NCBI RefSeq assembly: GCF_000341395.1
Contig: NC_020305.1
Span: 4,752-36,751, forward strand
Source of the DNA: Desulfocapsa sulfexigens DSM 10523
Lineage (GTDB): Bacteria > Desulfobacterota > Desulfobulbia > Desulfobulbales > Desulfocapsaceae
Length of the DNA: 32,000 nt
Direction: 5' to 3'
Numbering within the stretch: the first letter of the stretch is position 1; each line of letters opens with the position of its first letter. Positions 1 through 16,760 of the stretch are shown here, piece by piece. The notes under the pieces are model-generated. The model was not told where the DNA came from and ran no database searches. It saw only the letters and a program-made list of their open reading frames with translations. The translations under genes were made by a program, and so were the position numbers.

Positions 1-1
1 A

Positions 2-199
2 CCTAATATCTTGACTTTTCAGCATCATATGGAGTACACAAAAAGGTATTTAATAGCCCTAATTAATTCCAGAAAAGATCTTATAGGATCAGAAATCACC
101 CAAATTGCACTAAATGGAATGAGTCAGGATTTGGATAGCAGTTATGCTGGAAGACTACTTTTGAAGTTCCTAGCCCAACACAGAAATTTAAATCAATAA
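2..199 (+). CDS. Possible 3-prime end of a hypothetical gene that starts upstream of the window
   Basis: The frame is open from the window edge (no stop before the listed ORF 11..199). No recognisable motifs. Confidence 0.3.
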   Translation, partial: PNILTFQHHMEYTKRYLIALINSRKDLIGSEITQIALNGMSQDLDSSYAGRLLLKFLAQHRNLNQ

Positions 200-236
200 A
201 GACCATCAACACATTTAATAGATCGAAGGAGAAATC

Positions 237-1175: not shown

Positions 1176-1176
1176 T

Positions 1177-2082
1177 ATGGCTAATTGGCAGCTTCTAGTC
1201 CAAGCCCCTAGTACAGGTTTTCTACTTTCAGTTGTTGGAGTCGCTATAAGCCTTATTGGAACAACCGTAGGTATCTATACATTACTAAAGGTAAAAAAAG
1301 TAGTAAAGGCCCAGATTGAGGAGAGAAAGCTAACGCAAGAGTTGCTTGATGTAGATCAAATAGAGAAAGATCTAAGACGAGTTGTTTCTAAACTAATGCA
1401 GGTTAATGACCACGACTCGGTTTCGCTCGCTAACGCACTCTCACAACGTTTGGGGGCAATCCAGGGTACAAGGAGAGTAATTGATCATGGTGCATCAGCT
1501 TGCGGTTGTGCATCGGGCGATGCTGTTTCCATTAAAACTGGTTTTTTCTGTTCGACACATGTTGATGATTTCATAGAACAAAGCACCTCTCGTATTGACC
1601 TCATGACTGGTAGTACAAGGCTAATAGCAGGGTATTTTACTATGGACAAGATCAAACAGGCATGTGAACGTGGTGTCAAGGTCCGGATAGTTGGGCTATC
1701 CCCCGAGGCACCTGATGATATTTTATTAGATGCAGCAAAAACTGTCTCAAAGCCAGCCCCTGAAACAGCCGAAGACTATCGTAACCTTATAAAGGCAAAC
1801 CACAACGAAATTAGCAAGGTCGTAAACTCTTGGCCTGCACAAACAAAAGAACGATTTGAATACCGGGAGAATTTTGGTGTCCCCAGGGTATCTATTGCAA
1901 AATCAGATGATGTAATATGCTTAGGTTTCTTACAATTGTTTAGAGATGCCCAGCCTGAAAAAATCAACGATAGGCAATACATCAAGATTCCCCAAGATTC
2001 AGAGTTGGGAAGTGTAGTAATGAAACACTTTGAGCAGGGTTGGAGTGAAAGTAAGAAAATCATACCAGCAAAAAGCGGATAA
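1177..2082 (+). CDS. Membrane-anchored protein: N-terminal TM helix, coiled-coil linker, C-terminal domain with a PLD-like scaffold pattern but no HKD motif
   Basis: ATG at 1177 sits 1 nt after the stop of the upstream gene. TM segment GFLLSVVGVAISLIGTTVGIYTLL. STSRIDLMTGSTRLIAG...ACERGVKVRIVGLSP resembles the first strands of PLD-superfamily domains. I see no HxKxxxxD. Confidence 0.7.
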   Translation: MANWQLLVQAPSTGFLLSVVGVAISLIGTTVGIYTLLKVKKVVKAQIEERKLTQELLDVDQIEKDLRRVVSKLMQVNDHDSVSLANALSQRLGAIQGTRRVIDHGASACGCASGDAVSIKTGFFCSTHVDDFIEQSTSRIDLMTGSTRLIAGYFTMDKIKQACERGVKVRIVGLSPEAPDDILLDAAKTVSKPAPETAEDYRNLIKANHNEISKVVNSWPAQTKERFEYRENFGVPRVSIAKSDDVICLGFLQLFRDAQPEKINDRQYIKIPQDSELGSVVMKHFEQGWSESKKIIPAKSG

Positions 2083-2127
2083 CATAAATATTTCCTGTGG
2101 TTCTTCGCACTTTCTGAGGACAACATC

Positions 2128-3057
2128 ATGGCCAGTTTTGCATTTTTCTTGGATCCGCTTGATACTTTATCCTTAGACAAGGATTCAACCTTACAGATAA
2201 TAAAGCAAGGATATTTAAAAGGTCATGATGTCGCCGTATTTCATGATAAGGATCTAATAGTCCGAGATGGTGCTGTTATTATCAACTCAAGAATTATTGA
2301 TTTTACAGCAGAAACACTCTCGGCACAGGTTGATTGCAAAAAAGATATTACTGACTTCGATATACTTTTTGTTCGCAGGGACCCACCAGTAACCATTGAA
2401 TTCTACACTAGTTTAAGCATACTCTCATCAATCGAAGCTAATATCCCCTGTATAAACTCTCCTTCTTCTATTTTAACCTTTCCCGAAAAAATTGGGCCTA
2501 CCACCTTTAAACAACTACACCCTCCAACATTAATTTCCAGTAATCTTTCCGAAATCTATGACTTTAAAAAAGAACATGGAGCTGTCGTAGTAAAACCGTT
2601 ATACAATTACTGTGGAAATGGGGTTTATATTAGTTTACAAAATGATCGAAATTTCAACTCTATCCTCTCACTGTTCAAAATGAACAGTAATACGCCTATA
2701 TTATTGCAGAAATTCATAGAAGACGTTTCAGACGGCGACAGACGGATCATAATGCTAGGTGGTGAACCCGTAGGTGCCATAAACCGTAAGGCAAGCCCCA
2801 ATGATTTTAGATGCAATATGTTTGCTGGTGGAACCCCAACACTTCATAACCTATCGTCGACCGAATTAGAAATGTGTGCCCAAATAAGCCCGATACTGAC
2901 TGAAAGAGGTCTACATCTAGTTGGAATTGATATTATTGGCAACTATATAACAGAAATTAATACAACCGCACCTACAGGTATATTTCAAATTGCCGACCTT
3001 GGTGGCCCGAATCTATGTGCTACAATAATTGACTACGCAGAAACGCTAATAAAATGA
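2128..3057 (+). CDS. ATP-grasp ligase of the prokaryotic glutathione synthetase (GshB) family
   Basis: Collinear with E. coli GshB: DPLDTLSLDKDST, VRRDPP, VVKPLYNYCGNGVY, DGDRRIIMLGGEPVGAINR, NMFAGGT, LVGIDIIGNYITEINTTAPTG. Confidence 0.9.
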   Translation: MASFAFFLDPLDTLSLDKDSTLQIIKQGYLKGHDVAVFHDKDLIVRDGAVIINSRIIDFTAETLSAQVDCKKDITDFDILFVRRDPPVTIEFYTSLSILSSIEANIPCINSPSSILTFPEKIGPTTFKQLHPPTLISSNLSEIYDFKKEHGAVVVKPLYNYCGNGVYISLQNDRNFNSILSLFKMNSNTPILLQKFIEDVSDGDRRIIMLGGEPVGAINRKASPNDFRCNMFAGGTPTLHNLSSTELEMCAQISPILTERGLHLVGIDIIGNYITEINTTAPTGIFQIADLGGPNLCATIIDYAETLIK

Positions 3058-4124
3058 GCTATCCAACAAATACATCAGACATTGAGGTTCCATTTCTCAA
3101 AATTTCAGGCTCTCCCAAAGAAATGGGCCTAACTCATGGAGAAACATATCGTAATTTAATAGGAACTCTCTTCGAAATACGCCATGAATTACTCTTAAAA
3201 GGTGCCAAAGGATCTGATGAAAATAAAATTGAAGACATAGCGTATTCTTTCTGGAAATATATCAGCAATTTTGACAAGCCCTTAGCAATAGAATTGGAAT
3301 CAACAGCCAAAGCAGCGAATATTCTTCCATGGAAGCTGGTTGTTGCAGGTGGTTTCACTGATCTTATGGATGCGCTTTCAACTACTATTCATCCAGATTA
3401 TCATGAATGCACCGTTGCCATCGACCCTGCCAAAGGCTTCATCGCTGGAACATGGGACAGCCACCCCGAAGCAGGAGAAGCACTAATCCTGTTAGAACGA
3501 CACCCGAATAACGGCCCTGCAACTCTAGCCCTCACAACAGCTGGCTGGCCATGTCAACAAGGCCTCAATAGTTATGGTGTTGGATTTGCGATTACCAATC
3601 TCACCCCAAACAAATCTTCAAAACATGGCCTAGTTTATATTGCTGCTAATGCTTTCTTAGGAACAGCACAAAGTACATCTCACATCTTAAACCAGCTAAA
3701 AACAGAAACTTATTGCTCAGGCCATTCTTACATTGTTCTTGATAGAACTGGATCTGGTGCAATTATGGAAACAACCAACACCACAACTAATATTTTACAA
3801 ATTAACTCTCTCACCACCAAGGCTAATCATTACCTATCTGGGCCACAAAGCATTGATAACAACAGTAATTATCTCTACTATGACTACAGTATTTCACGTG
3901 AAAAGGAATTACATGAGAACATATCCCAAATGGCTAATGCACAAGATTTTCCTAGTTGCCTCTTTAATTCTCAGAAAGTCAATCGTACTGATAGTTCTCA
4001 GGTAGCTATCACTTGCGCACATTTTCTAATTTCGGTAATCGATAATACGATTTGGTACGCAAAAGGCCCTGCTCTTCCTCCTCTAAAATATCAGATGCTA
4101 TCAAAAACATTAAGTGACGAGTAA
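3054..4124 (+). CDS. Peptidase C45 / acyl-CoA:6-aminopenicillanic-acid acyltransferase-like Ntn hydrolase
   Basis: N-terminal GSPKEMGLTHGETYRNLI signature and a candidate nucleophile Cys in HECTVAIDP. About 350 aa, typical of the family. ATGA overlap with the upstream gene. Confidence 0.7.
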   Translation: MSYPTNTSDIEVPFLKISGSPKEMGLTHGETYRNLIGTLFEIRHELLLKGAKGSDENKIEDIAYSFWKYISNFDKPLAIELESTAKAANILPWKLVVAGGFTDLMDALSTTIHPDYHECTVAIDPAKGFIAGTWDSHPEAGEALILLERHPNNGPATLALTTAGWPCQQGLNSYGVGFAITNLTPNKSSKHGLVYIAANAFLGTAQSTSHILNQLKTETYCSGHSYIVLDRTGSGAIMETTNTTTNILQINSLTTKANHYLSGPQSIDNNSNYLYYDYSISREKELHENISQMANAQDFPSCLFNSQKVNRTDSSQVAITCAHFLISVIDNTIWYAKGPALPPLKYQMLSKTLSDE

Positions 4125-4125
4125 A

Positions 4126-5808
4126 ATGAAAATAGCAATTATATTCCCACCAATTTTTGACCCTTCAATGCCATACTTGGCACCTTTTCAGCTGAAATCT
4201 TACATAAAAAAGCGTAGACCTTCATGTGAAATAGATGTCTGCGACCTAAACATTCTTTTCTTTAATAGCATTGTAAATAACCCATACAAAAATTTTAACT
4301 ACAGTTTAAACAATACCTCGTCATATGAATCAATTATTACATGTGAAAGCAGTATCACAAGCGCGTTATCTAATTGGTCTCAAACCCATGGCGTTGAAAT
4401 AACAAGACAAAGTGCTGACTATTTTTTTGATACCAGCAATTCTGAAGGCTATGAATCATTTTTAGAAAATACGACACCATTTGAAAACTACCTAAGCAAC
4501 CTTATAATCAATCATATTGACATTCCAAAATATGATCTTTTCTTCTTCTCTATTACTTCTTATGAACAGCTCCTCCCCTCTTTAATCCTGTCTAAAATTG
4601 TAAAGTCGATGAACAAAACGACGAATATTTGCCTTGGGGGAAATATTATATCAAGAATTTTCAAAGGGCTCCTTAATAGTCCCCTGCTAACTTCTATTGA
4701 TTTCCTTGTCATTAAAGAAGGAGAACTACCTAGCGTAAATCTTGTCGATTATCTATCAAATCGTAAGCCTGGTAACCTAACCAATAGTCTCATTGAAGTT
4801 TCAACCAAAAAAGTTATCGACAGAACTCAGAAATCTAAAATTTTTGAAATAGACCAAATTCCTACTATTGAATTTAACGAAGAAGAGTTAGGCTTATATT
4901 TCTCACCTGAACCTGTGATACCAATTTCATTGGCTAGGGGTTGCAGCTGGGGAAAGTGTTCATATTGCGGCATTCACACGGTATGGGGTTCCGGATATCG
5001 AACAAAGCTCCCCATTAAACTTGCTAATGAAATTGAGAATCACAAAAGAAGGTATTCAACTAATAATTTCCGCTTAATTGACGAATCTCCTGCAATCAAA
5101 GACCTACTTAAACTCTCCGACGAACTAATCAGTAAAAACCTTGAAGTCAACATCGAAACTTATTTAAACCTAAGCTCAGCACTTTCAGATCGAGAAACAA
5201 CAAATACACTTTACGAAGCAGGATTCAACCAGCTATTTCTTGGAATTGAAAGTTTGAACAAGGAATTATTGACAGAAATTGGTAAATCCATAAATCACCC
5301 CAACCGGTATGCTGATTTACTTGAAAGTACACACGAAGCAGGGATATCAAACTATTCCTTCCTTATGGTTGGCCTACCTAATGATTCAATCAATAATGAA
5401 TTAGAAGTTGAGAAGTTTGTACTTTCAAATAGTGACATTGATACAATAGCTATTTCAAGCTTTATACCACTCAGCAACTCACCAATGTATTCAGACATCA
5501 GCTTTCAATCCAAACACGGTATCAAGTTTACACCCAGGGGGCCATTGACAACTAGGTGTGATTACAAAACAAATAACAGAGACGTCAGTGAAGAAACCAA
5601 TAATAGAGCCAAGGCAATGGCTAATCGGATCTTCATAGGACGAAGAGATCTCTGCCTCTCTAGCAATATCCCCTATGAATCCCGGTTTTATTTAATCAAT
5701 AAATTTGGAAACAATTGCTTTAAGGACTTAGCAAAAGCCACCAGTTTCAGTTTTAATGAACCTCTGATAAGTACAGAGCTAGACGGCAGGCTTACTGGCC
5801 TAAAATAA
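4126..5808 (+). CDS. B12-binding-domain (class B-like) radical SAM enzyme
   Basis: MKIAIIFPP N-terminus typical of the B12-binding-domain subgroup. Cluster motif ARGCSWGKCSYCG, FLGIESL, and a total length of about 560 aa. I prefer the ATG at 4126 to the GTG at 4114 in the ORF track. Confidence 0.85.
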   Translation: MKIAIIFPPIFDPSMPYLAPFQLKSYIKKRRPSCEIDVCDLNILFFNSIVNNPYKNFNYSLNNTSSYESIITCESSITSALSNWSQTHGVEITRQSADYFFDTSNSEGYESFLENTTPFENYLSNLIINHIDIPKYDLFFFSITSYEQLLPSLILSKIVKSMNKTTNICLGGNIISRIFKGLLNSPLLTSIDFLVIKEGELPSVNLVDYLSNRKPGNLTNSLIEVSTKKVIDRTQKSKIFEIDQIPTIEFNEEELGLYFSPEPVIPISLARGCSWGKCSYCGIHTVWGSGYRTKLPIKLANEIENHKRRYSTNNFRLIDESPAIKDLLKLSDELISKNLEVNIETYLNLSSALSDRETTNTLYEAGFNQLFLGIESLNKELLTEIGKSINHPNRYADLLESTHEAGISNYSFLMVGLPNDSINNELEVEKFVLSNSDIDTIAISSFIPLSNSPMYSDISFQSKHGIKFTPRGPLTTRCDYKTNNRDVSEETNNRAKAMANRIFIGRRDLCLSSNIPYESRFYLINKFGNNCFKDLAKATSFSFNEPLISTELDGRLTGLK

Positions 5809-6123
5809 CAAGATAAATAAATCTACGGAAAATAGAGTTGTTAACTGTTCAGCCGCAATCGCATAGCACTATATTTTGTAAACAGGAGCGTTAGGATTAC
5901 AATTTAAGTTTAAATCATGTGTTTCTTCCAAATAACCATTCTATTTTACCTTTCGTTATCTTAAGGTAAGGTCTCTGCGTAGGCACTGTCTTCAAATCTA
6001 AATCATCCTTCATACAAGCCTTCCAATGCAATTGATATTCATCTTGATATTCCACTCCTATTATGTTCTATGATTTATATGCCAACAATATCAACAATCA
6101 GAAGAATGATAAAAGGTGTATAA

Positions 6124-6756
6124 ATGATAGTGGCAATAGTTAACCAAAAAGGCGGCACGGGCAAAACCACGATAGCCGTCAACCTCGCTTTTGGAACCGC
6201 TAACGCAAAATATCCTACCGCCCTGGTCGATGCCGATACCCAGGCAACCTGTCTCCATTTTTATGGTAACCAGGACATAGAAAACCTTACCGTCTGTTCT
6301 GCCGGTGATGATGTCCGGGAAACGGTGCAACAGTTGAGCAAGGATCACCGCTTTGTTTTTATAGACACAGCCCCTCACGATAACGATTCCATGTACCTTG
6401 CCATGGTCACTGCTGATCTGATAATCATCCCCACCAGACCACGGCCCTTTGATCTTCACTCCTCGGAAAAGGTAGTGGAGATGCTCCGGAGTATCGAGAA
6501 CGAGTATGGCTACACGCCCTGCTATTTCCTCCTCAATCAAGTAAAACACGGTACCATTCTCGGCAGGGAAACCCTGGATTATATCCAGCACAACTTTGAA
6601 CTGCCTGTCCTGAAAACCCAGATCCATGATTATGAGATTTACGGACAGGCGCCATTATCCGGACAATCCGTATTCCTCTACGCACCCAAGCATAAAGCAG
6701 CTCAAGAGTTGAGAAACCTGCTGCGAGAGATGAACAAAATATACAAATCTCAATAA
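6124..6756 (+). CDS. parA: ParA/ParF-type (small, type Ib) partition ATPase
   Basis: Deviant Walker A VNQKGGTGKTT, 210 aa, followed by a small ribbon-helix-helix gene. Confidence 0.9.
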   Translation: MIVAIVNQKGGTGKTTIAVNLAFGTANAKYPTALVDADTQATCLHFYGNQDIENLTVCSAGDDVRETVQQLSKDHRFVFIDTAPHDNDSMYLAMVTADLIIIPTRPRPFDLHSSEKVVEMLRSIENEYGYTPCYFLLNQVKHGTILGRETLDYIQHNFELPVLKTQIHDYEIYGQAPLSGQSVFLYAPKHKAAQELRNLLREMNKIYKSQ

Positions 6757-6860: not shown

Positions 6861-7130
6861 ATGGGCTTGCTCGACAGCACAGTGATGAAGCAGAAAAAAC
6901 CAATCAGCAAGAGCAGTGAAGAAATATTAGCTGCCAGGCGTAAAACCACTCCGACTGTAAAAGGCAAGGCCGGGAGACCTGCCAAGTACCCAAGAGATGA
7001 AAACACCAAGCGCATGAATGTGTTTATCCCTGGTGATATCCACAAACAGCTCAGACAGGCGAGTGTCGATTTGGATGCTTCGATGAATGAAATTATTGTT
7101 GATGCTTTACTGGCAAAGTTCAAGAAGTGA
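6861..7130 (+). CDS. ParG/CopG-like ribbon-helix-helix centromere-binding protein
   Basis: 89 aa. Lys/Arg-rich flexible N-terminus, then an RHH-like RMNVFIPGDIHKQLRQASVDLDASMNEIIVDALL. RBS GGAGG. Located downstream of parA. Confidence 0.7.
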   Translation: MGLLDSTVMKQKKPISKSSEEILAARRKTTPTVKGKAGRPAKYPRDENTKRMNVFIPGDIHKQLRQASVDLDASMNEIIVDALLAKFKK

Positions 7131-7350: not shown

Positions 7351-10035
7351 TTACGACTCGTTCGTATCGTGTGCAGGTTTAAGATTAAACCTGCCATGAT
7401 CGTGTTTGTAACACACTATTTCAGCACGTAATTGATCACCCGCATCAAACTCTTCAAGTAATAACGCGCCAGCATCTTTAAGTTTATTAAATTCAGAAAT
7501 GTGTATCAAGCCAGTGCCTTCAATACCAAATTCAACGAACAGGCCGTATTTCTTTATCCCTGTTACCTGGCAGTCAACTACTCTACCAGGAGGATATTTT
7601 TTTTGTAATGTTTCCGTATCAGAAGTACTACTTGCCTTCTCTTTTAGTTTTTGGACATATTCTTTTGGTTCTGTAATATTGCAAAAATCATGAATTCTCT
7701 CTTCTGCTAATATAGCTTCAGGGTTTGCCAGATAACTATCTTTATATTCTTCTAAGTAAGATAGCAAAACTGAGGCATTATCAACTGATGAAGAGTATGA
7801 CATGTGTCCTTTACCTTTACTCCCAATTAATCTATCTGCTATATCTTCCGCAATGCGTGCATCTTTAAACCATACATCTTCAGAACACGTTGAAAGGTAA
7901 TCTAAATTTATGAGTAAATCCAGATGGACATGTCCAGATGGAGCAATTGAAATAAGGTCATCAATTGAAAATTGATTGATGTTTTGAGACTCAGTTGATA
8001 TACATCCCGCCTTGATTAGTTCAGATATTTCATCAGATAACCTTCTTTCGTCATGCCCATATGCTACTAGTTCATTAATGATTGTCGCGGTTTTATGATA
8101 CCCAAGCATCCCGCTTGGACCTTTAGTTCGATATTTTTTCTTTAACCAAGATAAAACTGACAACCTCGCAAAAGGATCTGGTATTATATCTTCTGGAAAA
8201 GATGCAAAAATATTTTTAACGAGGCTGTTAGCATCATTGTAGTACCTTCTGTTCCCGCGAAAAAGAACCCTGGTAACGATATGCTTTGGTAAAACATAAT
8301 CACCCTTTGCATGCCTTATTTTAAATATCTGGTCTTCATGAATGTGTCCACTTTTGCAAAAATCAAGAAAAATTTCCAACCCTTTTCTGATATTTGACCC
8401 AGCAATTCCTGAAACTATTCGCCTAAAAAGTGCATCATTTTGGAATAGTGAACGCAAAATACAAGCTAAATAATATGCTTGTTCAGATTGTGGATATTCA
8501 ACTCGAAATCCATTTGGAAGAACATAGGACAATGAATTCTCTTTCTCCGTATCCATTTCAGCGAGAGCAAGTTTGACTCTCTTGTAAAGAACATCCATGA
8601 ATAGTGGCGCATCAATTCGGAAGACTAAATCTTTGATGACTGTATCTAGTGGTGGTTCTGTTCTGTGGTGATCATATGTGGTGTCACGGATAGGTAGAAA
8701 TACTAGACATCTACATGTTTTTTGGAGCCATTTCGCTACATCAAACATTAGCAATTGGTCGTCTCGATTCCGTTTGTCACTATTATCAAGTGACACAATT
8801 AATAACTTTTGTCTCTCAGCACAAAAATGGCGAATACATGCATTCATAGTTGCATCTGTATCACCTTGCACTCTGATCAACTCATCCGCCAAAAGGCTTT
8901 TATATTTGTCTGAATACTCGTCAAAATAGGCCCCAGCACCTTTTTTAATTTTATTAAGCTCAACACTATATAATTTTTCTAAAAAAGGTAGACTGTCGAA
9001 ATCAATATCAGCGTTATGGTTCCTGAATTCATTAATTATCTCATTCTCCAACCAAGAATAAATCACCCCTCTTGAAAGAGGTGCCAGATTCATATTAATG
9101 GATATCCACACAGTTGATTCTTTAATTTCTTCAGGTAAGGAGACTTCCCTTAGATAATCAATGAATGTTGATTTTCCGCTCCCAACACCTCCAATAAGAA
9201 CTAATAATTGGTGGTGAAGTTTGTCGTTTGGTGTAAGAGTTCTCAACAGTTCACTTGGGTCTGTCGTTGAAATTTGATGAGCATCTGTGATACTTGGCGG
9301 ATTTGCTGCGCGGATTATTTTGTCAATCGGATCTACATGTCTGAGGCGCCTTGTTGATTTTACATAAGCTTTCTTAACAATGTTTTTTCTTTCCTCCTCT
9401 GATTCAGGGTTGAACAAATGCCGATACTCAAGTGCCAAAGTATTACCAAACGAATTTAGCTTCACTTCCTCATTTCTTACTGATCGTCCTCCTATAATGT
9501 TTGTAGGTCTCTTAAATTGAACATTGCCTCTCAATTTTTTTTGTTCTACATCAGAGAATTTTTCTAAATTTACCTTACAACCAAATGTAATCAATTTTGC
9601 GAGATTTGGATGAGATGCGTCTATTTCAGTATTAGAAATTTCTAGTAATATTGAACTGTCATCCCATGAGCCACAAATTGTACGTAATGAATTCGTTGCG
9701 ATTAATTTCTGACAAGGATTAAAATGAGAAGGAAAAAGTGAATTTATTTCACCTGCATATAGCCTTGCTTCACGAATAGCCTCTTCAAGGTTGTTATCCT
9801 CTGGATGTTTTGCTTCAATTACAAGAACAGGAAGGCCGTGTAAGATAACTATATAGTCCGGATAGTATAGTTTTTTTGCCCTTCCCTTGTCTATTTCAAG
9901 CTGCCTAATATCTGGCTTGGTTCTAAAGTCGCATGAAGAGTATCCTAACCCAACAGGTTGACTATTAGTAAGTAGTGGAAGAATGAACTTCTGCTCGACA
10001 TCGCTTTCATTCTTTATATCTTTCTCAGAAATCAT
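7351..10035 (-). CDS. 894-aa multidomain protein: N-terminal PD-(D/E)xK nuclease (HsdR-N-like), central P-loop NTPase (STAND/NACHT-like), helical region, C-terminal S1 OB-fold
   Basis: YYPDYIVILHGLPVLVIEAK gives D60 and E74-x-K76. Walker A GGVGSGKST at aa 282-290. Walker B-like LLIVSLDNSD at aa 411-420. S1 signature GRVVDCQVTGIKKYGLFVEFGIEGTGLIHISEF...GDQLRAEIVCYKHDHGRFNL at the C-terminus. AT-rich and monocistronic. Confidence 0.9.
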   Translation of the reverse strand: MISEKDIKNESDVEQKFILPLLTNSQPVGLGYSSCDFRTKPDIRQLEIDKGRAKKLYYPDYIVILHGLPVLVIEAKHPEDNNLEEAIREARLYAGEINSLFPSHFNPCQKLIATNSLRTICGSWDDSSILLEISNTEIDASHPNLAKLITFGCKVNLEKFSDVEQKKLRGNVQFKRPTNIIGGRSVRNEEVKLNSFGNTLALEYRHLFNPESEEERKNIVKKAYVKSTRRLRHVDPIDKIIRAANPPSITDAHQISTTDPSELLRTLTPNDKLHHQLLVLIGGVGSGKSTFIDYLREVSLPEEIKESTVWISINMNLAPLSRGVIYSWLENEIINEFRNHNADIDFDSLPFLEKLYSVELNKIKKGAGAYFDEYSDKYKSLLADELIRVQGDTDATMNACIRHFCAERQKLLIVSLDNSDKRNRDDQLLMFDVAKWLQKTCRCLVFLPIRDTTYDHHRTEPPLDTVIKDLVFRIDAPLFMDVLYKRVKLALAEMDTEKENSLSYVLPNGFRVEYPQSEQAYYLACILRSLFQNDALFRRIVSGIAGSNIRKGLEIFLDFCKSGHIHEDQIFKIRHAKGDYVLPKHIVTRVLFRGNRRYYNDANSLVKNIFASFPEDIIPDPFARLSVLSWLKKKYRTKGPSGMLGYHKTATIINELVAYGHDERRLSDEISELIKAGCISTESQNINQFSIDDLISIAPSGHVHLDLLINLDYLSTCSEDVWFKDARIAEDIADRLIGSKGKGHMSYSSSVDNASVLLSYLEEYKDSYLANPEAILAEERIHDFCNITEPKEYVQKLKEKASSTSDTETLQKKYPPGRVVDCQVTGIKKYGLFVEFGIEGTGLIHISEFNKLKDAGALLLEEFDAGDQLRAEIVCYKHDHGRFNLKPAHDTNES

Positions 10036-10258
10036 TCAATTTCCCTCGATTAAGCCTATTAATTGTTCATTTGGCAGTTTCAAAGTATACTAGCAATACA
10101 GTCATATCCATATATTCACATACATATGCCACAACATTCGAAGTCAACATATTTCCAACTCTCTATTTTAATCCAAAACAAAGATATTGAGGATATAGAC
10201 TGAGTTGGTAATACGGAAATAATGAATTAATTATTCCACTAGTTACATATTCAAACAT

Positions 10259-11554
10259 TTAAACATCCTCCCCCAGCCGCTCCCCAATAAAAACAGCTAA
10301 CATCCCCTCAACCATTCCAGGGGTCACCCCTGCCTCATCATATCGTTTCAGCACAATCGTGTTGCCGGTCGCCACTAGGTTCTCGCGGAATTCAGCCAAA
10401 AAAGCTTCTCTCTCCCCTTCCCCCATGGATTCATACCGTGACATGGCAAGTTCCTGTTTCTGCCTTTTTTCGGCTTCCTGGCCATCTTCCTGCTGTTTTT
10501 TAGCTATCCTCTCCTGGATAACAGCTTTTTGCTGTACTTCATACTCCACTTCAATAATTGATTCCTGCGGCTTCCATCCCTCTTCAATGGCCTTCCTGGC
10601 AATGCCTCCGACACTCTCCACCTTCTGGCCGCGCTTTCGCACCTTGTTTATATATTCTCTTGCCATCTGCAAGGCCGCCTTAATGTGATCATGGCCGTAC
10701 TCTTCCACCAGCTCCTGTGCTTTTTTCTCGGGAGAAATACCGAACTCCATGATCAGAATATCTTCCATGGAGGTCTGCCCTCCCCTGTCACTTATTCCTG
10801 GAAGCTCCATCTGCTGATAGCGTTTATTTTTGCTCCAGGTAAACTCAATCTCCTGTACCTTCCGTCCCTTCTTGATCTGGATAAAATCAAATTGAACATC
10901 GGTCTTGGCGGCTATATCCTTTTTGGCTGGCAACAGAACTTTTGATTTAAAATGACCAAACAGCCGGTATGTTCCTTCGGGAATGGCCAGATATTCACGG
11001 AGCCAGGAAAGCTCAACTCTTGCAGATTTGCGGTGATCCACATTGGCAAGCCCCTGGTTGTACTTGATGAACTGATAAATTCGCAGGGAGTAGTGATTTC
11101 TTAGACGAATGACCGCCCTTGCTTCTCCAAGGGTGGTGAAATTACCTTTCAGGGCAAGAAGAAACGGTTTGAGGGTCGGGTCAAAGCGTAATTCAACACA
11201 CCCTTTCCCTGGGATAATAGAGGCGGAAGAGCACCAGGTGGTTTTGTCGATCCGGCCATCTGCCTTTTCATCCGGATTGATCCAGCGAATAACCTTCTTC
11301 AGCAGCCCTTCTGTGGCCTCATCAAAACGAGCATAGAGATCATTGCGGCTGCCCCCCATGATATTGCAGAGTTCCCTGATGGATATCCGGTAGGGCTTGA
11401 AATCCTTATCACCTCGTTGGATCAGCGACAGCATATAGAGCACCAACCGCTGTTCGTTAATCTTCAATTGCGGCCATTGTGCTTCTATGAGCAGATCATT
11501 AGAGGCAGCTATCAGACCACCGCCCTCTTCCTTTTTGATCACCTCGTCAGTCAA
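10259..11554 (-). CDS. Plasmid replication initiator, Rep_3/RepB family
   Basis: N-terminal NDLLIEAQWPQLKINEQRLVLYMLSLIQ pattern typical of Rep_3 initiators. TTG start per the ORF track. Iterons lie immediately upstream. Confidence 0.85.
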   Translation of the reverse strand: MTDEVIKKEEGGGLIAASNDLLIEAQWPQLKINEQRLVLYMLSLIQRGDKDFKPYRISIRELCNIMGGSRNDLYARFDEATEGLLKKVIRWINPDEKADGRIDKTTWCSSASIIPGKGCVELRFDPTLKPFLLALKGNFTTLGEARAVIRLRNHYSLRIYQFIKYNQGLANVDHRKSARVELSWLREYLAIPEGTYRLFGHFKSKVLLPAKKDIAAKTDVQFDFIQIKKGRKVQEIEFTWSKNKRYQQMELPGISDRGGQTSMEDILIMEFGISPEKKAQELVEEYGHDHIKAALQMAREYINKVRKRGQKVESVGGIARKAIEEGWKPQESIIEVEYEVQQKAVIQERIAKKQQEDGQEAEKRQKQELAMSRYESMGEGEREAFLAEFRENLVATGNTIVLKRYDEAGVTPGMVEGMLAVFIGERLGEDV

Positions 11555-11635: not shown

Positions 11636-11967
11636 GAAAATAGTGATAGTTAGTTTCTGCACATCCGAGAATGGTGATAGTTAAGAAAGAATCAGGGAGT
11701 AATTACCCTCCAATCATTACGCTAATGGGCACATCCGAGAATGGTGATAGTTCATCCGAATTCGGTGATAGTTGAGAAAGAGTAAAGCAAACAATGCCCC
11801 TGTAACCCTTACTGGCAAGTACTTTACTGCCTATGTGTTCTCAATATCCATTCCCCCGAGAATAGTGATAGTTCATCCGAGAATGGTGATAATAACTCCG
11901 AGTTTAGTGATAGTTCATCCGAGTTTGGTGATAGTTAGTCCGAGAATGGTGATAGTTTGAGCAAAAT
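11636..11967. repeat. Iteron array (oriV): about nine copies of TCCGAGAATGGTGATAGTT
   Basis: Copies at 11636-11651 (partial), 11664-11682, 11734-11752 and 11755-11773. Five tandem copies with 21-bp phasing follow at 11865-11883, 11886-11904, 11907-11925, 11928-11946 and 11949-11967. Confidence 0.9.
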
Positions 11968-12346: not shown

Positions 12347-12865
12347 TCAATTAGTCCATCTCAGAACCTTCTTTCCCTGAGTAATAACATTCTCCAGCTT
12401 GAAGGAATCAGATCCAGCGCACCAGTCATGAGTTTTCTTCCCCCCGTTATATCCATCAACAGCCAGGCCATTCTTCACCAGGATGGCCCCCAGGTCTTTC
12501 CCGTCAAATTCTACGTCGGCAATGATCCTGAAATACTTCCCCCGGCCAACTTTGTGGAGATTGATCTGTTTTGCTGACCTAAGCAGAGAGCGAACCATTT
12601 TTTTAGCCTGTCGGGCTTTTTCCAGTTCAGCCGGACATCCTGCTTTCATTTCTGGAGTATCGATCCCCCTGATCCGGATCATCATGTCGCTACCTATGAT
12701 AGGATGAACTCCTGGAATGTTTACGGTGATAGTATCCCCATCATAGTTTTTCACATAATGTACGCCTTTAAAACTACCGTAAGTGTGATCCTTTTTTGCT
12801 CCGTTAACACTTATTGGTAGAAAAACGAGGGCTAATAGAAAACAAACAAACTTTACTGTGCGCAT
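12347..12865 (-). CDS. Secreted thermonuclease (staphylococcal nuclease, SNase) homolog
   Basis: Signal peptide MRTVKFVCFLLALVFLPISVNG. SNase motifs DGDTITV and IRIRGIDTPE. Confidence 0.85.
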   Translation of the reverse strand: MRTVKFVCFLLALVFLPISVNGAKKDHTYGSFKGVHYVKNYDGDTITVNIPGVHPIIGSDMMIRIRGIDTPEMKAGCPAELEKARQAKKMVRSLLRSAKQINLHKVGRGKYFRIIADVEFDGKDLGAILVKNGLAVDGYNGGKKTHDWCAGSDSFKLENVITQGKKVLRWTN

Positions 12866-12922: not shown

Positions 12923-13360
12923 ATGAGACATTACAGCACGATTCTAAGGGAAGAAAGGGAAAAAGCCGATTTGTCACGAAGGGCTGTAGCGAAGGTTGCA
13001 GGTATCTCCGAGGGGCACTTGCGTTTTCTGGAAAGAGGGGATCGGGATACAAAACCGGCAACTCTTCGTAAGTTGGCCCTGGCTATCGGCATAGATGAGC
13101 GGGAGTTGATGGAGTCCTGGTTAAAGGAAAATATGCCGGCAATGGATTATTCCGATCTGGCTGCACGTCTTCCAAAAGGAATTGATGTGGCCCAGCTCGA
13201 AGAAATGTATCAGATTCCGGAGGCAAAACAGATTCTTCAGGAAGCGGAGCTGATCACGGCGAGTCAATTCAAGAATATCAGTGCCTCTGAGTTGTTCAGG
13301 ATCCGAGGGGCTCTCCGCAACTGCCTTGGTTTTATCCGTGAACTTGAGAACAACACGTAA
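12923..13360 (+). CDS. XRE-family helix-turn-helix transcriptional regulator
   Basis: LSRRAVAKVAGISEGHLRFLERGDR HTH_3 pattern. 145 aa. Confidence 0.8.
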   Translation: MRHYSTILREEREKADLSRRAVAKVAGISEGHLRFLERGDRDTKPATLRKLALAIGIDERELMESWLKENMPAMDYSDLAARLPKGIDVAQLEEMYQIPEAKQILQEAELITASQFKNISASELFRIRGALRNCLGFIRELENNT

Positions 13361-13781: not shown

Positions 13782-16760
13782 ATGAATGATTTTGAAGAGA
13801 TCAAGCGGGCTGCTGATCTAAAAGCAATCATTTTATCCGAAACGGGTCTCCAGATGGGAAAAAACCATCTGGAGTCATGTCCGTTTTGTGACGGCCATGA
13901 TTGCTTCAGTATAAACACGAAGAAGGAGCAGTACAAGTGTTTTCAGTGTGACACTGGCGGAGACATCTTTGATTTTATAGCAAAATATCATGGTGTTACT
14001 GAGCGTGAAGCCCTTCTCAAAGCTGCGGATCTGGTCGGCCACACCCTCTCTCAACACAAAAAGTCCGCAAGACTGAGCAAAAACGATAAACTTTTGCTCT
14101 CGGCTGCAGAATATTATCATCACCACATGCTGACCAACGGTGCCAAAAAGTACCTGATGGATCAGCGCGGCCATTCCATGGAAACCCTGGAACGTATGAA
14201 GGTGGGGTGGACTGATGGTAAGTTGCTTTTCAACCTGCAGGAACAGGGATTCACAATCGATGAAATCCTGGAATCAGGGCTGGCCCGGGCTGATAAAAAG
14301 AACCCCGGTCGCCACTATGATTTTTTCGGAAAAGGGCTGGCAATCTTCCCTCACTTCGAGAATGGCCGAGCCCTTCACTTCACCATTAAAGATCCCGAGA
14401 AAAAGCGGCCTTCCTACCAGCTCCCCGCAACACAGCGTCACAAGAAGTGGCGATTCTACAACCAGGATGCCCTTTTCAGATATGATGAATTGATTCTGGT
14501 TGAAGGGGAAAACGACACCCTTTCTGTCCTCGATTCAGGTGTCCGCCAGGTCATAGGGATGACTGGCCAGATATCGGAAGAGCAGATAAAGAGCCTGGCT
14601 GCACACTGCAAGAGCAAAAAACATCTCTACCTCTGGATGGACAACGACTTTGACCACTCAAAGCCGTATACAAAAGGGTATGGCTATATTCGCAAAATCT
14701 CCGAAAGCCTGCCGGGGGTTAATATCCGTATCTTTGTTTATCCTGGAAATTTCAATGATCCGGACGAATACCTGCAGCACCTCGCAAGAGACAAGCGCCG
14801 CAATGCAATCTGCCAGCTCCGCATAGAATCGGTTGATTATATCACCTGGGAAATTCTCCAGGCCGAAGCCAAAGCAACATTGGAAGATAAGGTTGAACAC
14901 CTCAATCAGTTCAACCTCTTTCAGCAGATCAGCCAGCGCTCCCACATCGAGCAACAGGTTTATATCGAGAAACTTGAGGAGTTGGGCCTCAACCTGAAAT
15001 CAATCCATCAGGAACTGGAAACCGGTGGCGGTCTTCGCCAGCGGATCACAGAATATCTGGAAAACCTCAATAGCAAACGGGATGCAAATCCAAACAGTAT
15101 TGCCGATCTGATCCACGATCATTTCAGCGATGGTGGTCGTTTTTTCAGGGATGATGACGACAAGGTTTATCTGATGTGGCATCACAATATCTATGAAGTG
15201 TCCACCAATCGTCCCTTCAATGCCCTTATCAAAAGAGAAACAGGGTTATTACCCACGGAGCAGCCGGGCCGCTCTGTCTGGGAGTCCCTTGCTTCAGAAG
15301 GGTATAATTCGGGACGGAAAATTGATCTCGGTGGGTGGTTGCACACGGATCGCGGTGCCGATACGGTTTATATCAACCTCAACAGCTCCAATAATATCAT
15401 CATAAAGATCACGCCGACGGCTATCGAAGAGATCCAGAATGGATTGAACCAGGATCATATTCTTTTGCAGAGTTCCAGCAAAATAAAACCATTCAACTAC
15501 CTGCCGGAAACAACTATTGAGGAGGCTGTCTCCGAATTGCGGAAGCTGCTTTTCGATAATCTCTCCTGCGAAACTACCCAAAAGTATCTCCTGCTCTGCT
15601 GGTTTATTTCAACTTTTGTTTCTGATTTCAGTCCCCATGTGGCCCCATTGCTGAAAGCTGCAGGGGAAACCGCCTCCGGCAAGACCACCGCTGCCAGGCT
15701 TCTCGAGTATCTTCTCTATGGTGATGAGCACCTGGGTGAAATATCCGTTGCTGGTGCCTATGCGGACGCCAGCCAGAACCCCATGCTGGTGATTGATAAC
15801 CTTGAAAATCAGGACATCAAACAGGAAATGCTCAAATTTCTACTTCTGGTGGCGACCAGGGGGAGCAAGGTCAAGAGGAAGGGCGGTACAGAATCTGGAG
15901 TTACCGAAGAGAGTCCGAAAGCCCTGGTCATGGTGACGGCCATCGAACCCTTTGTTAAATCCGAGCTCATAAACCGGACATTTGAAATCAGCTTTGCCAA
16001 ACAATATCACAATGAAGGGTTTATTGATGATGAAGTGACCCGGCAGATCCTCAAAAAACGAGACATCATTCTTTCCGGTCTGCTCAAGCTCATTCAAAAA
16101 GAAATCCTGCCCAACCTGAAAAAGAGAACTGCCTATATTACAGCCCTGAATGTCGATCATAAAGGCCACAGCAAGGATAGAATGAACGCTTATCTGGCCT
16201 TGATGATGCTTATTTTAGATAGAACCCTGAATTATTGGGATGTGGGGCTCCACTTAAAGGCACCTGATATCTGGCACAACTGGATAACCACCCAGGACCA
16301 GTTGGCCCGGGAACATGAAGTCAGCTCAAACGATATTCTAAAGCTGCTTGACGGCCTGATCCGGGAGTACCGGCTCCGGATGAACGAACAGGAACTCCGG
16401 CCCCAATGTGTTTACGGGTATGAGGAAGAAGTTTATCAGTATACCCACCCGGAATACGGCATATCAATCACCAGGACACTCCCTAAATTTATCGATGATA
16501 ACAGGGAACACACAGAGGCCTTTATTGAGTTTGAGGCCACCAGCAAAGATTTGACCTATGCCTTTACCCGTTTTTGCAAGAATAACGGATTGGCCAACCC
16601 CTATTCCTCAGCTGCTATTTTCGGTTCACGACTCAAGAATGACCGGAAATTATTAGTCAAGGGAGGCTGGGAGCTGGTTACAAAGGAGGACAATGGAACC
16701 TATTTCAAGGTTGTCAGAGGTCAAAGATATCTCAGATTTCGGCATCGTCTTATCAGATAA
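13782..16760 (+). CDS. DNA primase (CHC2 zinc finger plus TOPRIM) fused to a large C-terminal P-loop domain (primase-helicase-like)
   Basis: CPFCDGHDCFSINTKKEQYKCFQCDTGGDIFDF zinc finger. TOPRIM LILVEGENDTLSV and LWMDNDFD. Walker A GETASGKTT and Walker B-like MLVIDNLEN in the C-terminal half. Confidence 0.9.
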   Translation: MNDFEEIKRAADLKAIILSETGLQMGKNHLESCPFCDGHDCFSINTKKEQYKCFQCDTGGDIFDFIAKYHGVTEREALLKAADLVGHTLSQHKKSARLSKNDKLLLSAAEYYHHHMLTNGAKKYLMDQRGHSMETLERMKVGWTDGKLLFNLQEQGFTIDEILESGLARADKKNPGRHYDFFGKGLAIFPHFENGRALHFTIKDPEKKRPSYQLPATQRHKKWRFYNQDALFRYDELILVEGENDTLSVLDSGVRQVIGMTGQISEEQIKSLAAHCKSKKHLYLWMDNDFDHSKPYTKGYGYIRKISESLPGVNIRIFVYPGNFNDPDEYLQHLARDKRRNAICQLRIESVDYITWEILQAEAKATLEDKVEHLNQFNLFQQISQRSHIEQQVYIEKLEELGLNLKSIHQELETGGGLRQRITEYLENLNSKRDANPNSIADLIHDHFSDGGRFFRDDDDKVYLMWHHNIYEVSTNRPFNALIKRETGLLPTEQPGRSVWESLASEGYNSGRKIDLGGWLHTDRGADTVYINLNSSNNIIIKITPTAIEEIQNGLNQDHILLQSSSKIKPFNYLPETTIEEAVSELRKLLFDNLSCETTQKYLLLCWFISTFVSDFSPHVAPLLKAAGETASGKTTAARLLEYLLYGDEHLGEISVAGAYADASQNPMLVIDNLENQDIKQEMLKFLLLVATRGSKVKRKGGTESGVTEESPKALVMVTAIEPFVKSELINRTFEISFAKQYHNEGFIDDEVTRQILKKRDIILSGLLKLIQKEILPNLKKRTAYITALNVDHKGHSKDRMNAYLALMMLILDRTLNYWDVGLHLKAPDIWHNWITTQDQLAREHEVSSNDILKLLDGLIREYRLRMNEQELRPQCVYGYEEEVYQYTHPEYGISITRTLPKFIDDNREHTEAFIEFEATSKDLTYAFTRFCKNNGLANPYSSAAIFGSRLKNDRKLLVKGGWELVTKEDNGTYFKVVRGQRYLRFRHRLIR

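Follow-up and report, generated by a model that had tools for sequence, protein, structure and literature searches.

A plasmid-encoded nuclease–NTPase–S1 protein of Desulfocapsa sulfexigens is a candidate stand-alone defence or mobile-element conflict protein

The window analysed here is a stretch of 32,000 nucleotides of Desulfocapsa sulfexigens DSM 10523 (contig NC_020305.1, positions 4,752 to 36,751), which matches the 36.7-kb plasmid of this organism. On its minus strand it carries an open reading frame of 894 codons for amino acids, at the place where an earlier note, made from the letters of the DNA alone, had put it; the ORF list agrees. The product is identical to AGF80099.1/WP_015405781.1, from the D. 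sulfexigens DSM 10523 plasmid, and bears the GenBank name 'ribosomal protein S1', a misannotation. The features of the locus and of the protein, in window coordinates, are the following.

6124–6756, plus strand: ParA partition ATPase (Pfam AAA_31, CbiA, ParA), convergent with the nuclease–NTPase–S1 gene
6861–7130, after ParA: small ParG-like ORF (ORF list)
7351–10035, minus strand: the whole 894-aa ORF, with its stop codon at 7351–7353
7375–7593, minus strand: C-terminal S1 OB-fold domain, residues 815–887 (Pfam, NCBIfam, PDB profile, Foldseek)
7636–8115, minus strand: helical and winged-helix region, residues 641–800 (38% mean pairwise identity; secondary structure of the model)
8116–8601, minus strand: helical lid-like region, residues 479–640, as conserved as the NTPase core (55% mean pairwise identity)
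8602–9225, minus strand: P-loop NTPase core of the STAND/ORC-Cdc6/KAP-like AAA+ class, residues 271–478 (conservation, AF2, Foldseek, Pfam of relatives)
8776–8805, minus strand: Walker B strand and extension LLIVSLDNSD, residues 411–420 (D417, N418 and D420 invariant)
9166–9192, minus strand: Walker A GGVGSGKST, residues 282–290 (G282, V284–K288 and T290 invariant)
9226–9630, minus strand: unannotated segment, residues 136–270, its C-terminal half conserved among the 36 relatives
9631–10035, minus strand: HsdR-N-type PD-(D/E)xK endonuclease domain, residues 1–135 (Pfam, invariant residues, EcoR124I alignment, Foldseek)
9808–9858, minus strand: catalytic motif D60 ... E74-A-K76 (PDYIVILHGLPVLVIEAK), invariant in 36/36 relatives
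10042–10047, minus strand: Shine-Dalgarno-like GAGGGA, 6 nt 5' of the ATG, read from the sequence
10259–11554, minus strand: Rep3-type replication initiator, upstream of the ORF (Pfam Rep3_N E=3.5e-29, Rep3_C E=2.3e-18)
11732–11957: iterons, near the Rep3 initiator

The gene thus sits, as had been proposed, between a partition module (ParA and the ParG-like ORF) and a replication module (the Rep3 initiator with its iterons). Two further descriptions of the locus did not hold. The gene had been called AT-rich within flanks of ~50% GC; its GC content is indeed 35–38%, but the left flank (positions 1–6000) is equally AT-rich, at 35–42%, and only the rep side reaches 47–49%. It had also been called monocistronic, which is unsupported as stated: the same strand carries rep 223 bp upstream, the gap between them has no predicted terminator-like site, and promoter-like matches around the gene occurred at chance level.

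Pfam matches, residue conservation and an AF2 model of the full protein (pLDDT 84.9, pTM 0.76) agree that the three-part architecture is real, with an HSDR_N nuclease, a P-loop NTPase and a C-terminal S1 domain. Conservation was read from 36 full-length relatives, 43–75% identical to the 894-aa protein. At the N-terminus, HSDR_N matches residues 43–120 (E=4e-10, above the Pfam gathering score), and a helix motif, ESDVEQ (residues 10–15), is invariant. D60, E74 and K76, named beforehand as the core of an HsdR-N-like PD-(D/E)xK nuclease, have their counterparts in the D...ELK catalytic motif of the HsdR of EcoR124I (aligned over its residues 150–245), which, together with their invariance and the Pfam match, confirms that assignment. 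Foldseek adds weak matches to the nuclease domains of HsdR, DrdV and BpuSI (E 0.02–0.07). The equivalent motif, DY..hEAK, is kept in 11/11 distant plasmid variants, and a search of distant relatives for exchanged N-terminal effectors found none, DY..EAK being retained in all 11.

The segment behind the nuclease, residues 136–270, includes eleven invariant positions (P177, G182, G183, N194, F196, G197, F208, N209, P210, R216 and Y224). It is modelled with a pLDDT of ~80–90 in the full-length protein, and residues 173–257 drop to 31–46 when they are modelled without the body. According to the model, then, this segment is probably an interface packing against the NTPase body.

In the NTPase core, R422, just after the Walker B extension, R450, at the end of beta-4, and R473 are invariant in the 36 relatives, in addition to the Walker residues. 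The Pfam P-loop match on the 894-aa protein itself is weak (AAA_29, residues 278–302), and no STAND Pfam model passes its threshold there; on this protein the STAND class is reached at the level of the fold only. Relatives match AAA_22, AAA_16, KAP_NTPase and nSTAND_NTPase5, of which AAA_22 and KAP_NTPase reach Pfam thresholds. Foldseek places the central part with Cdc6/ORC, CED-4, Apaf-1, NRC3 and RADAR RdrA, at probability 1.0 and with E-values of 1e-5 to 1e-3, modest even at their best (about 1e-5). Because of these structural matches and of the Pfam matches of the relatives, the label 'STAND/KAP-like' is reasonable, and the resemblance to STAND or KAP NTPases that had been suggested from the motifs stands as a statement of class. 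KAP_NTPase itself goes undetected on the 894-aa protein; in one distant relative (L008) it reaches 28.7 bits, above its cut-off of 20, and in others it is weak. A viral KAP protein is among the Foldseek matches. Many KAP members typically have transmembrane segments inserted in the NTPase domain; the AF2 model has a soluble-looking helical insert at residues 322–406. The Pfam scan of the 894-aa protein returned no helicase domain (ResIII/DEAD plus Helicase_C), and it is reasonable, with the Foldseek and Pfam matches, to regard the NTPase as a putative switch rather than a motor.

Residues 479–800, ~320 aa, are modelled as mostly helical, with beta-hairpins of the winged-helix type and, at residues 649–697, a run of H-H-H-beta-beta elements. 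Within this body, residues 641–800 are the most variable part, with a mean pairwise identity of 38% as against 54–55% in the nuclease, the NTPase and the lid, and entropy peaks at residues 761–820. Residues 641–800 are therefore, on sequence grounds, a candidate sensor or interaction surface. No repeat family of the TPR, WD40 or LRR sensor type was found in the Pfam scan of the protein. The C-terminal S1 OB-fold, predicted in advance, is well attested: Pfam S1 matches residues 814–850 above the gathering score (E=3e-5), the model shows a 73-aa OB barrel at residues 815–887, NCBIfam matches CvfD/GSP13 and the rpsA domain, Foldseek matches GSP13, and a profile search matches S1 proteins of the PDB with E=5e-29. 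Y830, F833 and R/K882 are each conserved in 34/36 relatives.

Such single-domain matches were all that Pfam and NCBIfam scans of the 894-aa protein gave; neither scan returned a named system. In databases the family goes by 'ribosomal protein S1' or by 'type I restriction endonuclease'. Taken at their word, the names would describe a housekeeping protein of RNA or DNA metabolism or an orphan type I R subunit, with the names themselves and the matches to the rpsA and hsdR models in their favour. The first is contradicted by a single S1 domain, where rpsA has four to six, and by an rpsA score of 35.7 bits against a cut-off of 524; the second, by an hsdR score of 18.7 bits against a cut-off of 284.55 and by the missing SF2 helicase motor. 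A conserved HsdM/HsdS partner is also lacking: the window has no adjacent hsdM or hsdS, N6_Mtase accounts for 3/148 neighbours of relatives in batch A2 and is not among the families listed for batch A3, and at the sole locus where an entire type I operon occurs, that operon includes a complete HsdR of its own. As the distribution is, in addition, sporadic and mobile, we give the database names next to no chance of being correct. Searches with the sequence and its profile against the PDB, and with Foldseek against the PDB and BFVD, did not find the whole architecture in any solved or viral structure, and the literature searched contained no description of a nuclease–NTPase–S1 architecture and no mention of six family accessions.

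The central module is found in 1,067 clusters at 50% identity, spread sporadically over more than ten phyla, with bacteria of the candidate phyla radiation (CPR) among them. Across the family the nuclease and the NTPase are constant and the C-terminal tail varies: among 267 relatives, 207 end in S1, 6 in an RRM, 2 in a cold-shock domain (CSD) and 52 in no tail at all, the last retaining nuclease, NTPase and helical body. The RRM-tailed forms fall inside the close S1 subfamily (43–44% identity), and the CSD-tailed forms sit on distant branches. Judged from these comparisons, the S1 domain is an add-on module, exchangeable for RRM or CSD. Because three unrelated single-stranded nucleic-acid-binding folds swap at one position, binding of single-stranded nucleic acid at the C-terminal end is supported; because 52/267 relatives are tail-less, S1 is not the sole or universal sensor of the family. 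Of the logic that the earlier note had proposed, effector, NTPase and sensor in that order, the three parts and their order stand and S1 as the only sensor does not. The census found no separate S1, CSD or RRM gene beside tail-less forms, with the exception of a Chondrinema plasmid, where one small S1 protein is encoded 2.7 kb upstream of a tail-less form.

The same observations bear on where a signal would be read. Conceivably the variable winged-helix/helical body (residues 641–800) would be the sensor and would read a foreign protein, in the manner of Avs, and the tail would merely tether the protein to RNA or ssDNA, for instance to bring it to invader DNA that is being transcribed or replicated, or to tune its threshold. 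The variability of this region and the loss of the tail with everything else kept fit this proposal, as does the fact that phage proteins are what most of the characterised STAND sensors of bacteria recognise, according to the main text of a 2026 STAND survey (PMC12803255). On the other hand, the region is only ~160–320 aa long and has no repeats, whereas that text gives the sensors of defence STANDs as at least 400 aa, and the independent gain of three tail folds at one position suggests that, in the lineages concerned, the binding of nucleic acid is central to function. On balance we find sensing by the body alone unlikely.

Turning to gene neighbourhoods, no conserved partner gene emerged from 48 loci with 287 flanking genes, the commonest neighbour family being ResIII (9/287). 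The contexts are variable and rich in mobile-element and defence genes, not conserved core-genome positions: members usually lie in prophages, integrative elements or plasmids, or beside restriction systems. Among their neighbours are restriction enzymes of types I and IV, MADS proteins, CapP, PbeA, a dCTPase and a ThsB-like TIR protein, and many others are ordinary metabolic genes; the PADLOC census of neighbours counts per family, not per protein, and so gives lower bounds, with no enrichment statistic or matched control. The 74%-identical relative has a Prim-Pol gene on one side and, on the other, a full type I RM operon with an integrase alongside; one relative forms the terminal cargo of a P2-like prophage, another comes after P2-like terminase and portal genes, and the loci of others carry TIR+DUF87, Fic/NERD/Mrr or ICE genes. 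A tblastn search of 50,697 phage genomes found no family member; carriage by phages is therefore not common.

On plasmids, from which 31 records carry relatives, several members resemble the D. sulfexigens gene in their surroundings. In Phaeobacter pP51_d the member is beside RepA, ParA and a RelE toxin-antitoxin pair, in A. baumannii pCUVET596 it is directly downstream of rep, in a Shewanella plasmid it is between two repB genes, and in the Chondrinema plasmid it follows parA. These settings, with the rep and par neighbours in the window, would suit a role in plasmid biology rather than against phages, in which the protein would exclude or degrade competing plasmids or serve as an addiction or stability module tied to the replication and partition region. 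However, most members are chromosomal or in prophages or integrative elements, without rep or par nearby, no antitoxin-like partner was seen, and on a small plasmid, which has little other DNA, accessory cargo will often end up close to rep in any case. We regard such a role as quite unlikely to be the explanation.

PADLOC v2 gave no defence-system match for the 894-aa protein, only fragments of P-loop or HsdR-N models with E-values of 0.007 or worse, and there is therefore no homology support for defence. In PADLOC v2, NCBIfam and the PDB the protein matches no named defence system and, beyond single domains, no housekeeping protein. The earlier note had held that full-length homology to a housekeeping protein or to a named system, or a core-genome context, would speak against its proposal; the computations found neither.

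Comparison with described systems is nonetheless instructive. The protein resembles Avs/AVAST in uniting on one chain a PD-(D/E)xK-type nuclease at the N-terminus (in Avs, for example, of the Mrr or Cap4 type), a STAND-class NTPase and a C-terminal recognition end, in its helical and winged-helix domains, in its carriage by mobile elements and defence islands and in its sporadic distribution. It differs in that the NTPase of the family scores nearer to AAA_22, AAA_16 and KAP_NTPase than to NACHT or NB-ARC, in that a helical/winged-helix body and a small OB fold take the place of a TPR-like repeat sensor, and in a tail that points to nucleic acid as the ligand, in place of the phage proteins that Avs recognise. 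Since it has no TPR, WD40 or LRR sensor and no Avs or other STAND profile of PADLOC matches it, the protein is not an Avs member. The main text of the STAND survey (589 clades; PMC12803255) gives TPR, WD40 and FGE as sensor types and does not mention S1, OB fold or HsdR.

Other systems share single traits. EcoR124I HsdR has the homologous endonuclease domain, but couples it to an SF2 translocase and works with HsdM and HsdS, whereas our protein would have a switch-type NTPase, not a helicase. RADAR RdrA and ORC/Cdc6 AAA+ proteins are the best Foldseek matches of NTPase, lid and winged-helix body, a similarity at fold level only (10–12% identity and, for the query as a whole, a TM-score of about 0.2); RdrA is a ring-forming defence ATPase whose partner deaminase, RdrB, is a separate protein, and neither a nuclease nor an S1 domain is fused to RdrA. 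DARNA/PD-T7-3, an abortive-infection system active as a higher-order oligomer, is also a single protein, with a C-terminal domain that binds ssDNA as the activating signal (bioRxiv 10.64898/2026.02.22.705581). We rejected it as a match, as its sequence and fold are unrelated (HEPN RNase and helical domain, ~456 aa, no NTPase).

The order of nuclease, STAND-like P-loop NTPase and C-terminal OB fold is found in SAMD9/SAMD9L and bacterial 'Avs9', antiviral or cell-killing proteins in some of which the OB fold is modularly lost (PMC12680541). Thus the claim that a system with an S1 end is undescribed survives only in part: no named system matches, but the order of domains has this precedent. The likeness is one of logic, with no sequence similarity detected; those proteins have an AlbA_2 RNase as effector, along with SIR2 and TPR, and ~1,400–1,600 aa (PMC12680541), and AlbA_2, SIR2 and TPR are absent from the Pfam scan of ours. 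CoCoNuT type IV restriction systems fuse restriction-type NTPase and PD-(D/E)xK components to cold-shock-like OB folds, but are multi-gene, with a McrBC-derived GTPase, coiled coils and other NTPase and nuclease families, and are themselves known computationally (PMC11090510).

These last two systems raise the question of the substrate. The nuclease may cut RNA, not DNA, with the tail delivering mRNA, tRNA or rRNA to the PD-(D/E)xK site and activation halting translation. S1, RRM and CSD are mainly RNA binders, the CSD-like OB folds of CoCoNuTs have been interpreted as a sign of RNA targeting (PMC11090510), and the domain order of SAMD9/Avs9 accompanies tRNA cleavage or cell killing (PMC12680541). 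Nevertheless, the closest relatives of the nuclease in sequence and structure (HsdR, DrdV, BpuSI) all come from restriction enzymes, in which they are the DNA endonuclease domains, and tail-less relatives keep the same nuclease. RNA cleavage is, in our estimate, very unlikely, slightly more so than the plasmid role.

Taken together, domain content and family distribution make it credible that the product is a protein of the nuclease-plus-STAND-like kind that acts alone in defence or in mobile-element conflict, and we infer for it a defence role on a DNA substrate, with oligomerisation and a nucleic-acid ligand for the tail, as follows. The N-terminal PD-(D/E)xK endonuclease would be the effector, most likely acting on DNA, and at rest it would be held off by the NTP-binding switch, the lid and the winged-helix domains. 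The S1 tail would bind single-stranded nucleic acid, with RNA as the likeliest ligand and ssDNA as a possible one, and the variable winged-helix/helical region together with the tail would sense an infection-specific cue, such as foreign transcripts in abundance, intermediates of replication or transfer, or a foreign protein bound to these. Once detected, the cue would lead to nucleotide-dependent oligomerisation, and the oligomer would unite the single-site nuclease domains, so that double-strand cuts would destroy the invader DNA or abort the infection. That the gene is a defence protein or, more broadly, a mobile-element conflict protein working in this manner seems to us somewhat probable. 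The stricter proposal, a receptor whose direct trigger, through S1, RRM or CSD, would be single-stranded nucleic acid (foreign RNA being the likeliest) and not a phage protein, with a DNA-cutting nuclease oligomer, we hold to be rather doubtful, if less so than sensing by the body alone.

Nearly all characterised bacterial STAND-type immune proteins read phage proteins through large repeat sensors. One nuclease–NTPase chassis bearing an S1, an RRM, a cold-shock domain or no tail would therefore be a natural experiment on the reading of nucleic acids by such switches and, if direct switching by nucleic acid were true, a prokaryotic counterpart of nucleic-acid-sensing NTPase receptors, with plug-in ligand modules on one chassis. 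The catalogue of defence would gain a compact single-gene system of ~2.7 kb, and the two misleading database names would be corrected for more than a thousand protein clusters. Finally, the recurrent siting beside plasmid replication and partition genes points to a possible role in plasmid–plasmid competition.

The gene is an open reading frame with a GAGGGA Shine-Dalgarno-like element, read from the sequence, 6 nt 5' of its start codon, and its product matches AGF80099.1/WP_015405781.1, encoded on the 36.7-kb Desulfocapsa sulfexigens DSM 10523 plasmid, at 100% identity. The ORF proposed in the earlier note is confirmed. The following features were assigned to it:

Window 7351-10035, minus strand: whole ORF, 894 aa, ATG start (ORF call)
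Residues 43-120, minus strand: HSDR_N (Pfam, E=4e-10, above gathering score)
Window 9265-9519 (residues 173-257), minus strand: conserved motif segment without Pfam annotation (alignment, model)
Residues 278-302, minus strand: P-loop, weak match (Pfam)
Residues 814-850, minus strand: S1 (Pfam, E=3e-5, above gathering score)

Public names of family proteins are misleading. This protein is called 'ribosomal protein S1' in GenBank and 'type I restriction endonuclease' in RefSeq, and JGI names one relative 'energy-coupling factor transporter ATP-binding protein EcfA2'. The first name is ruled out by the single S1 domain and an rpsA score of 35.7 bits, where the cut-off is 524, and the second by the absence of an SF2 motor, an hsdR score of 18.7 bits against 284.55 and the lack of conserved HsdM/S partners. 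The protein clearly belongs to neither family, and we regard a housekeeping or type I reading as extremely improbable.

The gene does lie, as had been described, between the partition and replication modules of the plasmid:

6124-6756: ParA
6861-7130: small ParG-like ORF
10259-11554, same strand as the gene: Rep3 initiator
11732-11773 (2 copies) and 11856-11957 (about 5 copies): 21-bp tandem repeats upstream of the Rep3 gene, most likely iterons of the plasmid origin

Two other parts of that description did not hold. The gene (GC 35-38%) does not stand out as AT-rich from flanks of 50% GC, since the left flank (1-6000) is equally low at 35-42% and only the rep side reaches 47-49%. Nor can it be called monocistronic as stated, because rep precedes it on the same strand at a distance of 223 bp and no terminator-like site was predicted in that gap; promoter-like matches around the gene occur at chance frequency. 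In composition the plasmid is a mosaic: from about 14 kb onwards, blocks at 14-20.5 kb and 23.5-27.9 kb rise to 45-59% GC. We also observed a low-GC plus-strand cluster at 2128-5808, which may be a plasmid-borne peptide-modification or small-molecule cassette, and, just past the origin, a staphylococcal-nuclease-like gene divergent from a regulator gene:

2128-3057, plus strand: glutathione-synthetase-like ATP-grasp protein
3054-4124, plus strand: acyl-CoA:6-APA acyltransferase-like protein
4114-5808, plus strand: 564-aa radical SAM protein
12347-12865, minus strand: staphylococcal-nuclease-like protein with a hydrophobic signal-like N-terminus
12923-13360, plus strand: HTH_3 regulator
13782-16760, plus strand: 992-aa primase-like protein with DnaG zinc ribbon and Toprim
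17333-18364, plus strand: tyrosine recombinase, after the primase-like gene

The N-terminal domain had been read as an HsdR-N-like PD-(D/E)xK core, and this is supported by the Pfam assignment and by two alignments. The proposed catalytic trio D60, E74 and K76 is invariant among 36 full-length relatives (43-75% identity). When a profile built on the first 272 residues was aligned with EcoR124I HsdR, the match covered chain residues 150-245 of the endonuclease domain, and the trio fell on the D...ELK motif with which this match opens. The full-length AlphaFold2 model, computed from the 36-sequence alignment, is confident (mean pLDDT 84.9, pTM 0.76) and forms an alpha/beta nuclease domain from residues 1-135 that is still confident when modelled alone. 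The nearest structures to this isolated domain are EcoR124I HsdR, DrdV and BpuSI, at weak E-values (0.02-0.07), so that the predicted fold agrees with the Pfam assignment rather than proving it independently. All three are DNA endonuclease domains of restriction enzymes; that the substrate is RNA instead is very unlikely. No swapped N-terminal effector was found in 11 distant plasmid variants: a DY...EAK motif is kept in 11/11, near residue 60 (95 in the relative L101), even in variants beyond Pfam HSDR_N detection.

The central P-loop NTPase was corroborated by invariant motifs and by the predicted structure, which agree with the proposed STAND-like class. In Walker A, G282 and V284-K288/T290 are invariant across the 36 relatives, as are the Walker B D417, followed by N418, D420 and R422, and several arginines, among them R450 and R473. 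As to the proposed KAP likeness, Pfam KAP_NTPase does not detect this protein; a distant relative (L008) scores 28.7 bits against a gathering score of 20, other relatives match weakly, and the Foldseek hits include a viral KAP protein. In the model, a five-stranded P-loop core (~271-478), whose strands 2 and 3 are separated by a helical insert, is followed by a lid-like region of helices, winged-helix type elements (helix-helix-helix-hairpin, e.g. 649-697) and an OB barrel (815-887). Foldseek matched the central body to archaeal and eukaryotic Cdc6/ORC, CED-4, Apaf-1, the plant NLR NRC3, Tn7 TnsC and the RADAR ATPase RdrA in the PDB (probabilities about 1.0, E-values 9e-6 to 1e-3), while no PDB entry matched the whole architecture. 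Nuclease and NTPase are joined by a helical segment (136-270) in which residues 173-257 carry the motif LGG..V.NE...NSFG...LFNP, with P177, G182, G183, N194, F196, G197, F208-P210, R216 and Y224 invariant. Because this motif is strikingly conserved and its pLDDT falls to 31-46 without the body, against ~80-90 in the full-length model, we infer that it is an interface packing on the NTPase body.

At the C-terminus, the proposed S1 OB-fold is confirmed by Pfam, by the modelled barrel and by Foldseek matches in the PDB to GSP13 and ribosomal S1 domains; the S1 aromatics Y830 and F833, as well as R/K882, are each kept in 34/36 relatives. The tail is exchangeable while nuclease and NTPase stay constant. 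In a local census of 267 relatives with complete C-termini, 207 carried S1, 6 RRM and 2 CSD, and 52 had no recognisable tail. The relative P0133 ends in a tandem RRM (Pfam E=2.7e-27), the plasmid proteins L006 and L010 in cold-shock domains, and tail-less forms are ~815 aa long. At 43-44% identity to the query, RRM forms fall within the close S1 subfamily; tail-less forms occupy a tier at 26-33%, and CSD forms are the most distant (~22%). These are three unrelated folds at the same position whose common property is binding of single-stranded nucleic acid, and their exchange supports the earlier idea of a C-terminal end that would engage RNA or ssDNA. The tail cannot be the sole sensor, because about a fifth of the family is tail-less. 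Within the body, variation is highest in the winged-helix/helical region 641-800 (38% mean pairwise identity vs 54-55% for nuclease, NTPase and lid), a candidate alternative or cooperating sensor surface. A body that senses protein, with the tail merely a tether, is in our view unlikely. In a Chondrinema plasmid, a tail-less member (L099:3329-5746) lies 2.7 kb downstream of a separate 193-aa S1-domain protein (L099:56-637), a single case that could be coincidence or a split arrangement. In the Acidobacteriota locus L020 the main match stops near residue 776 and an RRM is called as a separate downstream ORF (L020:12551-12967), which points to a frameshift, a faulty assembly or a gene that is truly split.

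Full-length relatives (~885 aa) number in the hundreds, with 758 matches among the candidates scored, and a query with residues 200-800 against 1.84 billion cluster representatives retrieved 1,067 clusters at E<=1e-3, of which 203 passed E<=1e-30. In a scan of one genome per species, relatives occurred in alpha-, beta-, gamma- and delta-Proteobacteria, Bacteroidota, Clostridia, Planctomycetota, Verrucomicrobiota, Acidobacteriota, Spirochaetes, Lentisphaerota, Melainabacteria and, within the candidate phyla radiation, Parcubacteria and Saccharibacteria. Such a sporadic distribution is typical of genes that move horizontally. No family match was found in 50,697 phage genomes.

At all loci inspected, neighbours differ from one locus to the next. 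One relative, flanked by gpD and integrase, is terminal cargo of a P2-like prophage, and another directly follows P2-like terminase and portal genes, the cos-proximal hotspot of PMC9122126. A 74%-identical relative has a Prim-Pol/D5 primase on one side and a complete HsdM-HsdS-HsdR operon on the other, with an integrase adjoining. Elsewhere relatives adjoin TIR and DUF87 genes, or Fic, NERD and Mrr genes, or lie in ICE-like DNA with RadC, DUF932, SSB and IS110, or share an island with resolvase, Rep, GIY-YIG and PLD genes in Saccharibacteria. A census of 48 genomic loci, three flanking genes on each side, revealed no conserved partner gene among 287 ORFs (commonest Pfam family ResIII, 9/287). 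PADLOC matches of neighbours at E<=1e-10 included DrmD/BrxH-class SNF2 helicases, type IV and type I restriction enzymes, PbeA, MADS proteins, CapP, dCTPase and a ThsB-like TIR protein. The flanks also contain many genes of ordinary metabolism, and the census has no matched control; it backs a defence or mobile setting, in a supportive, non-quantitative way. SRAP (SOS-response-associated peptidase) genes, whose products act on ssDNA lesions, recur near members (2/148 neighbours in A2, one census batch, and two plasmid loci, L098:6536-7216 and L100:2116-2568).

In at least five plasmids rep or par genes directly adjoin the relative: Phaeobacter pP51_d (L007), A. baumannii pCUVET596 (L010), a Shewanella plasmid (L096), the Chondrinema plasmid (L099) and the window. 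Both in pCUVET596 and in the window, the family gene comes after rep and shares its strand. This adjacency leaves room for a role in plasmid competition or stability, which we consider quite unlikely, and may simply be where cargo sits on small replicons.

We lean, by a little over even odds, towards a stand-alone defence or conflict protein borne by mobile elements. In this mechanism a STAND/ORC/KAP-like nucleotide-dependent switch would keep a restriction-type nuclease inactive until the variable C-terminal third, S1 tail included, detects an infection-specific cue; detection would drive oligomerisation, uniting single-site nuclease domains to cut DNA. Oligomerisation is proposed by analogy, because CED-4/Apaf-1, Avs and RdrA work in this way and because the nuclease domains would need pairing: those of type I and type IIG/IIL enzymes must be brought together for double-strand cleavage.

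PADLOC v2 yielded no named system, the protein's matches being confined to P-loop or HsdR-N fragments. Another single-protein system, the ssDNA-activated DARNA/PD-T7-3, is a HEPN protein and unrelated. Closest in logic are nuclease-bearing Avs proteins, but the protein has neither an Avs profile match nor a repeat sensor, two of the defining features tested. SAMD9/9L and bacterial Avs9 (PMC12680541) share the domain order nuclease, STAND-like NTPase, OB fold. A 2026 STAND survey (PMC12803255) describes, in its main text, sensors that are mostly TPR-like, WD40 or FGE-like, and mentions there neither S1, OB nor HsdR. Searches of the literature by accession and architecture keyword found no description of the family. 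This type of chassis is already familiar; the small exchangeable tail, predicted to bind single-stranded nucleic acid, together with this NTPase clade, appears to be undescribed in the literature searched. The family is large, unnamed and misannotated, with a clear hypothesis that would be cheap to test, although novel defence candidates have by now become common.
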